From a virus (lineage: Duplodnaviria > Heunggongvirae > Uroviricota > Caudoviricetes): a stretch of 4,067 bases of DNA. Shown here one piece after another: positions 1,847 to 3,738 of this stretch (position 1 is its first letter; each line of letters opens with the position of its first letter). The position numbers were made by a program, and so were the translations under genes. Under the pieces are notes generated by a model, which was not told where the DNA came from, ran no database searches, and was given only the letters and a program-made list of their open reading frames with translations. The stretch lies in IMG/VR virus record IMGVR_UViG_2690316188_000007. The stretch is one strand, 5' to 3'.

Positions 1847-2071
1847 TCAACACACTGGCTGTAATGCAGCGGATACCATGCGGCATTTAGCGGCATTCAT
1901 CGTACACTCCACGGTTAGCTCTTCATTCGTGGCATTCACCTGAAAGGTCCGGGAGTGTAATTGCGTACATTTACCACTGAACGAACCTTCAACAAGAACA
2001 CGACCACGCTGCAAAATACGGAACGGAATTGTTCCCTGAAAAGGTTCTACGGTTACCCGTAATTTCTTCAT
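1847..2071 (-). CDS. Hypothetical protein (74 aa), translationally coupled to Rz
   Basis: ATG at 2071-2069 overlaps the Rz stop TGA at 2070-2068 (ATGA), with GGAGGA 4 nt upstream inside the Rz 3' end. [45 protein letters not shown]...; no family recognised. Confidence 0.5.
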
Positions 2072-2562
2072 GTATCCTCCGGATAATAAAAAGCCAGCTT
2101 AGTGCACTGAGTGCGGATATATTCCTGCGCCCCTTCCAGCTGCTTCTGCATTGTCATCAACCGTTCTCTGAGGATGAAATAATCCCGTTCAGCGGTGTCT
2201 GCCAGTCGGGGGCCGGTTGCATTATCCACGCTGGAGGTGCCGGTGGCTTCACGCACGGTACCGGGGCAGGTGGCGTTGACCCGCAGGCGCTTACGACCAG
2301 CGGCAACATCAGCGCGCAGAGTTTCATTTTCAGCTCTCGCATCGGCTAATTCCTTCGTGTATCTGGCATCAAGCGCAGCGACATCTCGCTGGCGCTGCTG
2401 CATGTCAGTAATAGTGGCATTCGCCAGTTTCAGCTCACTGACTTTTTTATCGCGCTGCGCTTTGTAGGTGATGGCGTTATCGCGGTAATGATTCAGCCCC
2501 AGACTAAGCACACCACAGGCTACCAGCAGGACAATAATCACCACACACAGAACACGGTTCAT
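2068..2562 (-). CDS. Rz: Spanin inner-membrane subunit (i-spanin) Rz
   Basis: 164 aa from ATG 2562. N-terminal TMD then coiled-coil region; [55 protein letters not shown]...[24 protein letters not shown] aligns closely with lambda Rz as I recall it. The track ORF extends upstream to a GTG at 2646, but the lambda-like start is MNRVL at 2562. Confidence 0.9.
2157..2342 (-). CDS. Rz1: Spanin outer-membrane lipoprotein subunit (o-spanin) Rz1, embedded in the +1 frame of Rz
   Basis: 61-aa ORF wholly inside Rz in another frame. [61 protein letters not shown] has a lipobox (VSAC) and proline-rich mature region, closely matching lambda Rz1. Confidence 0.85.
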
Positions 2563-2563
2563 A

Positions 2564-2650
2564 TCACCACCAACGGATTGCCCAGACCAGAACAGCAATG
2601 GCCACAATACGAATGGCAAATGCCATTGCCCGAATAAGTTCAGCACTCAT
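2564..2650 (-). CDS. Small hydrophobic peptide, 28 aa (ORF-d), single predicted TMD
   Basis: ATG 2650; [28 protein letters not shown]; stop TGA ends 1 nt before the Rz ATG and its 3' end GGTGGTGA doubles as the Rz SD. Typical E. coli codons. Paralogous to ORF-c (shared RA[LM]AFAI[KR]xVA[VI] core, with synonymous codon differences). Confidence 0.45.
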
Positions 2651-2661
2651 CTTTTTAAAGT

Positions 2662-2784
2662 TCACGATTTCAGCGCAATGACCAGTTTTGCCAGCCCATA
2701 CAGCATCGGAGACACAGCAATACCAACAGCCACCCACTTAATAGCAAAAGCCAGCGCTCTGCTGATGTCATCAGTCACTGTCAC
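2662..2784 (-). CDS. Small hydrophobic peptide, 40 aa (ORF-c), putative GTG start overlapping the ORF-b stop
   Basis: GTG at 2784-2782 overlaps the ORF-b TGA at 2783-2781 (GTGA). (M)TVTDDISRALAFAIKWVAVGIAVSPMLYGLAKLVIALKS. This is the C-terminal part of track ORF 2662..2934, whose N-terminal part overlaps ORF-b in another frame and reads as non-protein-like. Paralogue of ORF-d. Confidence 0.45.
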   Translation of the reverse strand: MTVTDDISRALAFAIKWVAVGIAVSPMLYGLAKLVIALKS

Positions 2785-2912
2785 CCCAGCAGCCCCGACG
2801 AAGACAACATCACCCAGGCGAAGGACAGAAAAAGAGCAACCAGCATTAGTGAAAATGAAATACCGACAATCACACACAGGACCTTTGCCGGCGTTATGAG
2901 TTTGTCTGACAT
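2781..2912 (-). CDS. Small hydrophobic protein, 43 aa (ORF-b), single predicted TMD
   Basis: ATG 2912 with AAGGGG SD 5 nt upstream; MSDKLITPAKVLCVIVGISFSLMLVALFLSFAWVMLSSSGLLG; short polar N-terminus followed by a ~25-residue hydrophobic stretch. Starts 2 nt after the ORF-a stop. Confidence 0.5.
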   Translation of the reverse strand: MSDKLITPAKVLCVIVGISFSLMLVALFLSFAWVMLSSSGLLG

Positions 2913-2914
2913 AG

Positions 2915-3010
2915 CTACCCCTTAATTGCCACAATTAACTGGGATACTACCCATAAAAAAGGGATGCTCCAGACCAGCAAAAATTTCCAGTTTGGTAATT
3001 GACTAATCAT
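2915..3010 (-). CDS. Small hydrophobic peptide, 31 aa (ORF-a), single predicted TMD
   Basis: ATG 3010 with AGGGAG SD 9 nt upstream; MISQLPNWKFLLVWSIPFLWVVSQLIVAIKG. An in-frame TTG at 3049 preceded by GGGAGG would give 44 aa. The track ORF 2915..3127 extends through the terminator hairpin and is trimmed. AT-rich codon usage relative to neighbours. Confidence 0.45.
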   Translation of the reverse strand: MISQLPNWKFLLVWSIPFLWVVSQLIVAIKG

Positions 3011-3081
3011 GAGTCGCAACTCCCTAATCAGTTTGCTAAAATCAATCAAGGCAGCCTCCCATAGCTTACTGCCATAAAAAC

Positions 3082-3124
3082 AAAACCCCGCTTGCTGCCA
3101 ACAAACGGGGTTTTTACTTTTATT
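3082..3124. terminator. Bidirectional rho-independent terminator-like hairpin between the endolysin gene and the small-ORF cluster
   Basis: AAAACCCCG (3082-3090), 15-nt loop, CGGGG (3106-3110), then TTTTTACTTTTATT on the + strand; the complementary strand reads AAAAACCCCG...CGGGGTTTTGTTTTT. GC stem flanked by A and T runs on both sides. Confidence 0.6.
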
Positions 3125-3204
3125 CACTTACATTTTGCCAGTTCGCAGGATTTCGTGTTATCCATCCGCCTTGGCCAACGTCATTTATTAGCAAAATATT
3201 CTGC

Positions 3205-3738
3205 TTATCTGTCGATTCCCCAGCACGCCAGCGCGCTCTCCTGGTCACGACGGGATACCTGACCGTAACAGTTATTTGAGCGAATACGGCAGTCCCTGCC
3301 ACCGTCCTTAATCCACCAGCGAATCGCCTCACACGCTCCCCTGCGATCACCTGCATTAATTCGTTTATAAAACGTCGACGGAAAACACTTACCGGGGCCA
3401 ATGTTGTACGGACAGAATGACGCGATCCCCGCTTTCTGGGGTTCACTCAATGGCACTCTGATGTTTTTCTCCACCCATGCCAGCGCCTTATCACGCTCAA
3501 TGGCGTTAACCCGGTCGCATTTTTCCTTCGACAACTTCATGCCAGGAACGACAGGTTTGCCATCCACCAGGATGGCACCGCGGCAGATGGTCCAGATACC
3601 CGCGCCATCACGGTATGCCGTGGTGTGGTTACCTTCCTTTTCATCCAGAAACTGGTCGAGAATGTCAGGCGCAGGCGCACCAGCGGCAATCAGCGCCAGA
3701 ACGGCAGCCGACAGGCCGTATTTGATTTTGGTGTTCAT
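3205..3738 (-). CDS. Phage endolysin, GH24 (T4-lysozyme-like) with N-terminal signal-anchor/SAR-like segment
   Basis: 177-aa ORF from ATG 3738. N-terminal KIKYGLSAAVLALIAAGAPAP is an Ala/Gly-rich weakly hydrophobic segment. DEKEGNHTTAYRDGAGIWTICRG carries the Glu/Asp/Thr catalytic arrangement of T4-type lysozymes. Resembles lysozymes of E. coli lambdoid prophages. No SD before the ATG. Confidence 0.9.
   Translation of the reverse strand: MNTKIKYGLSAAVLALIAAGAPAPDILDQFLDEKEGNHTTAYRDGAGIWTICRGAILVDGKPVVPGMKLSKEKCDRVNAIERDKALAWVEKNIRVPLSEPQKAGIASFCPYNIGPGKCFPSTFYKRINAGDRRGACEAIRWWIKDGGRDCRIRSNNCYGQVSRRDQESALACWGIDR

Follow-up and report, generated by a model that had tools for sequence, protein, structure and literature searches.

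This study concerns two short open reading frames (ORFs), ORF-c and ORF-d, carried on the minus strand of a tailed-phage sequence (Caudoviricetes; IMG/VR record IMGVR_UViG_2690316188_000007) of 4,067 nucleotides (nt), referred to below as the window. Both ORF-c (2784..2662) and ORF-d (2650..2564) are genuinely coding; they are tandem paralogues from one family, on which purifying selection acts in the proposed frame. Coding status and paralogy are as good as certain. From the sequences and their setting, we also propose that the peptides may have an accessory inner-membrane role in lysis, a tentative assignment that stands a little short of an even chance; the overall explanation, which takes the real paralogous family and the lysis role together, is moderately favoured, as a compromise between these two assessments. 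Genes for a holin, a lysozyme, Rz, and a terminase were found around the mini-ORFs by the Prokaryotic Genome Annotation Pipeline (PGAP) and Pfam, and because of this gene content the window is taken to be the late lysis cassette of a lambdoid Escherichia coli prophage. The order of the cassette, whose relevant genes all lie on the minus strand, is SAR (signal-anchor-release) lysozyme, terminator, ORF-a, ORF-b, ORF-c, ORF-d, and Rz/Rz1.

ORF-c comprises 40 codons from a GTG start and encodes the c-type peptide copy VTVTDDISRALAFAIKWVAVGIAVSPMLYGLAKLVIALKS (c' below); ORF-d comprises 28 codons from an ATG and begins MSAEL. The two peptides (for ORF-c, ISRALAFAIKWVAVGIAV) align without gaps, with nine of 28 residues identical, and share in register the motif RA[LM]AFAI[KR]xVA[VI], as the original prediction, made from this one sequence, had noticed. 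The shared core, RAxAFAI[KR]x[VIL]A, lies in both within a single hydrophobic helix and spans 16 codons, at 2713..2760 in ORF-c (RALAFAIKWVAVGIAV) and at 2585..2632 in ORF-d. The codon pairs listed in that prediction are all correct (GCG/GCA, GCT/GCA, GCT/GCC twice, and GTG/GTC, with TTT, ATT, and GTG identical). Its argument, synonymous differences at nine shared residues of one paralogue pair, is thin when taken alone, and it is the cross-genome data that decide.

Several independent observations agree on tandem paralogy. The local alignment of the two peptides has a BLOSUM62 score of 47, vs. 21.5 +/- 4.2 in composition-preserving shuffles (z=6.0, p<=2e-4). In profile hidden Markov model searches, ORF-c matches phrog_4493, phrog_1115, and phrog_3246 with E = 7e-17, 2e-24, and 4e-27, in that order, and ORF-d matches the same three with E = 4e-6, 5e-2, and 9e-5. 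The R of RAxAFAI falls at position 29 of the phrog_4493 profile for both, and their full-length relatives c48 and d37, described below together with natural hybrids, agree. At the DNA level, a repeat search between the two genes gave no signal of tandem duplication, only a 15-nt direct repeat of 80% identity spaced by 122 nt; the paralogy is therefore visible at the protein level only. Since synonymous sites are near saturation between the c and d copies (pS 0.63, with pN 0.33-0.39), the duplication is old. The other mini-ORFs behave differently in the shuffle test: b-c, b-d, and a-d fall short of significance, and for a-c, p~0.005 (z=3.6). ORF-b, which forms a separate family (phrog_4906), was accordingly rejected as a relative of ORF-c and ORF-d. 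As for ORF-a, its C-terminus SIPFLWVVSQLIVAIKG is weakly similar to that of ORF-c, VSPMLYGLAKLVIALKS (hhalign P=0.0018, probability 15%), and it may be a third, more distant paralogue, which is unproven.

Selection was examined on distinct alleles extracted from 264 loci taken from IMG/VR, public assemblies, and annotated records. This is the codon comparison across homologous prophage regions that the original prediction had called for, and it bears out the claim that both ORFs are coding and that their frame is right. In the c core (27 alleles), variable sites are distributed 10/2/18 over the three codon positions, with a ratio of nonsynonymous to synonymous polymorphism (pN/pS) of 0.20 and an excess of synonymous changes (binomial p 1e-4). 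The d core gave 8/1/12 and pN/pS 0.205 in a first set of eight alleles (binomial p 1e-3), then 9/2/15 and 0.19 in the full set of 14. For full-length d37 (nine alleles), the figures are 6/1/25 and 0.074. Hence, codon position 3 dominates throughout. The signal is specific to the frame: the two other sense frames have pN/pS values from 0.48 to 3.7, with stops in most, and the three antisense frames range from 0.45 to 13. All of these were rejected as coding (pN/pS >=0.45, most with stops), including the 33-codon ORF starting at ATG 2771 (MTSAERWLLLL...), which does hold the codons CTA, TTA, and CGA, as had been remarked, and which shows none of the conservation. Among loci with the window architecture, ORF-c has two polymorphic sites, both synonymous, and ORF-d has three synonymous and one nonsynonymous. 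Frameshifts or stops in homologues, combined with conservation of another frame, had been named as what would overturn the coding assignment; a few frameshifted alleles do occur (for example P0056, on 33 contigs), no other frame is conserved, and these alleles fit occasional decay of a dispensable gene.

The commonest homologue of ORF-c is a protein of 48 amino acids (aa), c48 (MKNGLELKAP...KS; MKNGLELKAPVTDDISRAVAFAIKWVAVGIAVSPMLYGMAKLIIAVKS), and that of ORF-d is the 37-aa protein d37 (MKGIEVETP...RWW), present on >999 contigs. Over their first 31 residues, these two share 15 identities (48%). Three canonical forms can be distinguished, MKNGLE...KS (48 aa), MKGIE...RWW (37 aa), and MKNGLE...RWW (45-49 aa), within an overall range of 28-50 aa. 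Natural chimeras join them: P0048 has a c body with a d-like N-terminus, P0078 a d body with a c N-terminus, and P0081 a d body with the N-terminus of ORF-b, and P0088 from Yersinia has the length of c and a d-like RWW end. E. coli and Yersinia members, which are 53-59% identical, both retain MKNGLE and RAxAFAI. When 1.84 billion representative proteins were searched exhaustively with a profile, only 24 clusters came out at E<1e-3, the named sources being E. coli, Salmonella, Citrobacter, Yersinia enterocolitica, Y. kristensenii, and one record labelled Achromobacter. Apart from the latter, this narrow family appears confined to temperate phages and prophages of Enterobacterales.

Within E. 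coli, the family is common. Of 5426 complete genomes, 1779 match positions 2564-2784, some at up to seven places (roughly 2700 places in all), and 612 carry the tandem c-d pair; carriers include the ST131 and O157 lineages. Chromosomal prophages of many strains are 100% identical to the window over 2500-3210, the c-d segment of ST131 genomes is likewise 100% identical, and the plaque-forming phages PhiR5 and PhiR12 carry c48. A tblastn search of d37 against a phage collection gave no match, with low-complexity filtering as the probable cause. None of the four mini-ORFs has a match in Pfam or NCBIfam, the c/d family as a whole has none in Pfam, and the region has none in Rfam at E<=1.

The comparison with full-length relatives also clarifies where translation begins. 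Canonical c48 has its own ATG and a GAGG Shine-Dalgarno (SD) sequence. Within E. coli, substitutions at canonical c48 loci are mostly nonsynonymous before the ATG of MKNG, and from it on they are six synonymous vs. two nonsynonymous; this switch in selection, located exactly at the MKNG ATG, favours the 48-aa product over the 60-aa form. The latter (MxKYKxILLRLT followed by c48), which is the start used by PGAP and the PHROGs, is not favoured, the within-E. coli changes in its 12 additional codons being mostly nonsynonymous. Across genera, however, K-Y-[KR]-R is conserved in this extension and changes look more conservative, so that a dual-start reading of c48 stays alive.

The region upstream of canonical genes deserves a separate description. 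At canonical loci, a terminator hairpin and a conserved leader of roughly 65-90 nt always precede the family gene. Between the terminator and the MKNGLE gene, the leader is better conserved in nucleotides than the gene itself (L085 3860-4000, L260 330-455, L261 and L263 3370-3500, L135 2400-2500; L numbers designate loci of the collection). In its long form, it holds an eight-codon upstream ORF, M[CGY]REV[CL]SL, with a strong SD, whose TGA overlaps the GTG that opens an in-frame basic extension, VRKYKRILLRLT-MKNG. In the short form, the ATG of the upstream ORF is fused straight to xKYKR. The window is devoid of this leader. Upstream ORF and extension together may serve for a dual start or for regulation.

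Window ORF-c becomes homologous to c48 only from VTDD onwards, directly after the ORF-b stop (window GGGGTGACAGTGACTGATGAC vs. canonical GCGCCTGTAACTGATGAC). ORF-c therefore has no ATG or SD of its own and is without the first ten codons, the canonical MKNGLELKAP being missing. Its start options are GTG 2784, within the GTGA overlap with the ORF-b stop, and GTG 2778, with SD duplexes of -5 to -6 kcal/mol. The starts found in public resources are doubtful: the 51-aa PGAP form begins at CTG 2817 with no SD, and the 90-position phrog_3246 profile corresponds to an ORF from TTG 2934 that overlaps the whole of ORF-b in another frame. ORF-d has no SD either, and its ATG lies 11 nt past the ORF-c stop; its translation probably depends on coupling to ORF-c. 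The short N-terminus MS[AT][ED][LF]IRA of ORF-d is seen again behind a full-length c48 in L138 and, diverged, behind an unrelated ORF of 49 aa in L136, which makes it a real class of start. Thus, neither ORF-c, which begins VTVTDD, nor ORF-d shows the canonical arrangement of an own ATG with an MKNGLE or MKGIE tail placed right after terminator and leader.

Junctions between the mini-ORFs are tight. ORF-b and ORF-c overlap by GTGA, ORF-c and ORF-d are separated by 11 nt, and ORF-d and Rz are joined as TGAtATG, the Rz ATG being 1 nt past the TGA. The RWW-stop codons of ORF-d (CGTTGGTGGTGAT; CGUUGGUGGUGAU) form an SD-like GGUGAU for Rz (duplex -6.2), and junctions of the d/Rz type are also found in L085, L138, L257, and L260-L264. 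In our working definition, a canonical gene stops 1-8 nt ahead of a spanin gene or of lipo60, a small lipoprotein gene; ORF-d has this arrangement, and ORF-c lies one gene further upstream. The SD duplexes of ORF-a and ORF-b are both strong (-10.2 and -8.4 kcal/mol), and ORF-a to ORF-d together with Rz look like one translationally coupled chain. We also note that the b/c junction (2781-2790) reads CUG GGG UGA C with ORF-c in the -1 frame, and that a -1 slip of tRNA-Gly on G_GGG would yield an 82-aa two-helix b-c fusion; GGGGTGA joins ORF-b to Rz in L135 as well. Termination-reinitiation at GTGA appears simpler than a frameshift fusion.

The position of the family genes among their neighbours is informative about function. 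The window type, SAR-lysozyme, a, b, c, d, Rz, is found at 76 loci. Other arrangements with the SAR-lysozyme are d37, Rz (50 loci), c48, b, Rz (37 loci), and d37, Rz, lipo60 (8 loci). A GH108 endolysin is followed by c48, b, lipo60 at 41 loci and by d37, lipo60 at 14, and an M15 peptidase by d37, lipo60 at 11. In divergent loci (L257 and L260-L264, from Yersinia and others), a gene of 45-49 aa is followed within a few nt by an inner-membrane spanin (i-spanin) gene with an embedded outer-membrane spanin (o-spanin) gene; these spanins belong to several unrelated sequence types, and the endolysins vary, one being GH19-like and another 140 aa long. At all related loci examined, a family member is found directly ahead of a gene for a spanin (at least four sequence types) or for a small lipoprotein, and the endolysin upstream can be any of five classes. 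The neighbour that stays constant is therefore the downstream one, a spanin gene or that of the 60-aa lipoprotein, and the c/d gene goes with the spanin and not with the holin or the endolysin.

Several further features of these loci were recorded. In every genus examined, a bidirectional intrinsic terminator (A-tract, GC stem, T-tract) separates the endolysin region from the module of mini-ORFs and spanins (window 3082-3114; L085, L091, L135-L137, L232, L257, and L260-L264). Its inner stem and loop vary yet remain complementary: CCCCGTTTG...CAAGCGGGG, CCCCGGCTG...CAGTCCGGGG, CCCCAG...CTGGGG. The lipo60 product (phrog_7528) is a lipoprotein of 60-69 aa with the lipobox LVGC and a mature part of ~30 aa containing two more Cys (L091 4574-4783, L137 2656-2838, L232 2616-2798, L136 2916-). 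In cassettes with GH108 or M15 endolysins, it holds the position of the spanin, with no Rz-like gene found within 2.5 kb, and at eight loci it comes after Rz. Possibly it is an outer-membrane factor other than a spanin, presumably resembling the lipopeptides of the colicin-release or entericidin type. Finally, two loci are irregular. In L044, ORF-d runs in frame into a long tail-fibre-like ORF (...VWAINSYGQQGE...), which represents a recombinant junction or a misassembly, and in L230 d37 has lost its stop, its frame continuing into the lipo60 region.

The properties of the peptides point to a membrane helix. The best 18-residue Kyte-Doolittle windows have means of 1.9 (ORF-c) and 2.5 (ORF-d) with a low hydrophobic moment, which indicates a transmembrane and not an amphipathic helix. 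The flanks carry charges of <=0 on the N-terminal side and of +1 or +2 on the C-terminal side, which favours an N-out/C-in topology. One Lys/Arg inside the helix, seven residues past the conserved Arg, is conserved. AlphaFold2, run on the family alignment, predicts a single helix over residues 3-47 with a mean predicted local distance difference test score (pLDDT) of 86, and at most about 17 residues of the peptides are outside the membrane.

A possible course of events can be outlined. The late transcript, antiterminated by Q, would read through the terminator, and the peptides would be made in lytic growth only, because a scan for sigma-70-like promoters on the coding strand from the terminator to Rz, a consensus search that weak promoters could escape, detected no promoter-like site. 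The peptides would then insert into the inner membrane with N-out/C-in topology and contribute to lysis as dispensable accessory factors, at the stage of the spanins (envelope disruption) or close to it; translation of the mini-ORFs would also bring ribosomes to the spanin start. A bolder version, which we regard as speculative and rather unlikely, is that the MKNGLE/RAxAFAI peptides form an unrecognised class of Gram-negative lysis proteins, either as a membrane partner or regulator of the spanins or, with phrog_7528, as a minimal alternative to them.

Other explanations account for part of these observations. One, unlikely though deserving serious attention, accepts the family and considers c' as a decaying remnant: a rearrangement would have put ORF-a and ORF-b ahead of it and removed its start, its SD, and ten codons, only ORF-d (and ORF-b) would be made, and c' would be at most a ribosome relay. 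Purifying selection at c48 indeed begins exactly at an ATG with its GAGG SD, both missing from c', whose homology begins at VTDD by the ORF-b stop and which is left with GTG starts and weak SD duplexes; PGAP even falls back on a CTG. Yet 612 complete genomes and 77 ungapped IMG/VR loci keep the c' frame open, and both of its polymorphisms are synonymous. In addition, a GTGA stop/start overlap is the standard arrangement for coupling, and ORF-d, which is without an SD, seems to need a ribosome ending at the ORF-c stop. That the likeness of ORF-c and ORF-d is fortuitous, arising between hydrophobic Ala-rich ORFs in a non-coding spacer, might be suspected for such short, low-complexity peptides with only nine identical residues in the window pair; this reading is refuted by the shuffle test, by independent profile matches that agree in register, by the existence of full-length relatives and hybrids, and by frame-specific purifying selection.

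Two further proposals concern what the ORFs do. They could form a moron or a module resembling type I toxins that is active in the lysogen, with expression uncoupled from the late operon, and that serves host or prophage and not lysis, for example through superinfection exclusion, membrane toxicity, or persistence. The strong terminator ahead of the array, the optional and mosaic character of the module, and the size and hydrophobicity of the peptides, as in type I toxins, would suit this idea. It is made improbable by the promoter scan, which picked out no site on the coding strand from terminator to Rz (its one plus-strand site, 2906-2935, is within chance expectation), by the absence of an Rfam match, and by tight coupling to the spanin start in every genus examined. 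The peptides are also absent from the supplementary files of two ribosome profiling studies of uninduced enterohaemorrhagic E. coli cultures, which is weak evidence. Alternatively, and slightly less probable still, the ORFs would serve purely as translational couplers or leaders, the sequence of their peptides being of no consequence, and would carry ribosomes from the terminator-proximal leader to the spanin start and supply its SD. In agreement with this, the RWW-stop codons coincide with the SD of Rz or lipo60, the relic GTGGTGATATG persists in L137, where d is absent, and ORF-d has no SD of its own. A coupler would not explain why pN/pS is 0.07-0.2 along the whole peptide, N-terminal tail far from the SD included, why exchanges are the conservative I/L/V ones typical of a constrained helix, or why MKNGLE and RAxAFAI survive from E. 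coli to Yersinia.

A family of real genes with an accessory lysis role thus remains the explanation that we prefer, and the following points weigh against it. K-12 Qin has R overlapping Rz directly, with no mini-ORFs; the module is therefore optional and cannot be essential for lysis. Linkage to the spanin gene could reflect co-inheritance of a mosaic module and not a shared function. Window ORF-c, without canonical start and N-terminus, may be poorly translated or untranslated, and ORF-d, as seen above, starts without an SD. The alleles are related and recombining, which makes pooled pairwise pN/pS values phylogenetically non-independent, and d-type diversity amounts to about three lineages. 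Two scans of GTDB species-representative genomes gave no confirmed locus and are treated as uninformative, so that the breadth of the family relies on protein clusters alone. Finally, a full-text literature search for the peptide strings and accessions returned nothing, including expression or phenotype data.

The remainder of the window can be described briefly. The endolysin gene R (3738..3205) encodes a lysozyme (Pfam Phage_lysozyme) whose N-terminal segment is rich in Gly and Ala and of the SAR kind. It is preceded, in the identical prophage, by genes for a class II holin (71 aa) and a YdfR-family protein. Between the endolysin gene and the mini-ORF array lies a bidirectional intrinsic-terminator hairpin (3082..3114). 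ORF-a ends at 2915 and starts at TTG 3049 (44 aa) or at ATG 3010 (31 aa); it belongs to phrog_6632. TTG 3049, with the SD GGGAGG (duplex -10.2 kcal/mol), is probably the start, the 44 aa fitting the 45-position phrog_6632 profile. ORF-b (2912..2781) encodes a 43-aa hydrophobic peptide (phrog_4906; PGAP hypothetical protein WP_001280933). It precedes c' in the window and follows c48 in other phages, and its type-2 alleles have a pN/pS of 0.11. PGAP already lists ORF-b, ORF-c, and ORF-d as hypothetical proteins, the RefSeq entries WP_042004856.1 and WP_032140280.1 being exactly identical to the ORF-c and ORF-d products. Downstream are Rz, encoding the i-spanin (2562..2068; Pfam Phage_lysis, E=4e-51), and, embedded in it, Rz1, encoding the o-spanin (2342..2157). 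A 74-aa minus-strand ORF (1847-2071; PGAP hypothetical WP_000736383.1) overlaps the Rz stop; its sole match is to positions 100-172 of the 291-position phrog_2571 profile, and it is apparently a piece of some larger phage protein. After Rz and this ORF come a YlcI/DUF3950 gene on the plus strand and, beyond it, genes for an HNH endonuclease and the small terminase subunit. In the Shiga toxin (Stx)-converting phages P13374, phi191, and others, the terminator and the ORF-a/ORF-b region (86-87% identity; window 2781-3205) are followed by the antirepressor gene ant and not by c/d; the gap from R to Rz is therefore a hot spot for cargo exchange.

These results matter first for annotation. At least one member is found in a prophage lysis cassette of roughly one in three complete E. 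coli genomes, each copy being annotated "hypothetical" and often with a wrong start. Demonstrating constraint fixes frames and starts, and the linkage to spanin genes provides a concrete accessory-lysis candidate for simple genetics; cassettes that seem to lack spanins are flagged at the same time. If no phenotype were found, the work would still be a useful correction of annotation, and no more.

Among known systems, one that invites comparison is the releasin gp25 of phage Mu. It is a membrane-anchored accessory lysis protein, the part proposed here for c/d; its gene lies a few genes downstream of the endolysin, and it occurs with several endolysin classes (PMC9239132). Mu gp25 has 99 aa, of which 73 form a cytoplasmic domain, and its transmembrane domain is N-out/C-in; it defines Pfam DUF2730, found in Mu-like phages without a holin (PMC9239132). 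In contrast, the c/d peptides have 28-49 aa and no Pfam match (PF10805 included), and their cassettes already contain a holin. A releasin of the Mu type was therefore rejected, there being no DUF2730 match and no cytoplasmic domain of ~70 aa. As to the core lysis proteins, holins and antiholins, such as lambda S105/S107 and the phage 21 pinholin S68/S71, are small hydrophobic proteins of lysis cassettes. The in-frame upstream start of c48 would add a basic N-terminal extension, as in dual-start genes; the window copies are without this extension. Because c/d match no model (Pfam, NCBIfam, or function-annotated PHROG) and a holin, here of class II, is already present upstream, they are not considered as holins or antiholins; Holin_8 and Holin_3_7 are present in other contexts of the family. 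The Rz/Rz1 spanins are their coupled immediate neighbours in every genus examined, and Rz is also an inner-membrane protein. Unlike Rz/Rz1, c/d are optional and gave no match to Phage_lysis or DUF2514. As they are without a periplasmic domain long enough to extend to the outer membrane, they are not spanins. Type I toxins (Hok, Ldr, TisB, Ibs) are of similar size, consist of a single hydrophobic helix, and often reside in prophages. By contrast, no antisense RNA, own promoter, or long structured 5' untranslated region was detected for c/d, whose ORFs lie inside the late operon. With respect to current annotation, the genes were already known as hypothetical ones, and family membership was implicit in phrog_4493, phrog_1115, and phrog_3246, of which ORF-c and ORF-d are members and whose entries carry no function and many over-long starts. 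What is new is that starts and frames are corrected, that both copies in the window are recognised as belonging to one family and as shortened at the N-terminus, and that this family is consistently linked to spanin or small-lipoprotein genes.

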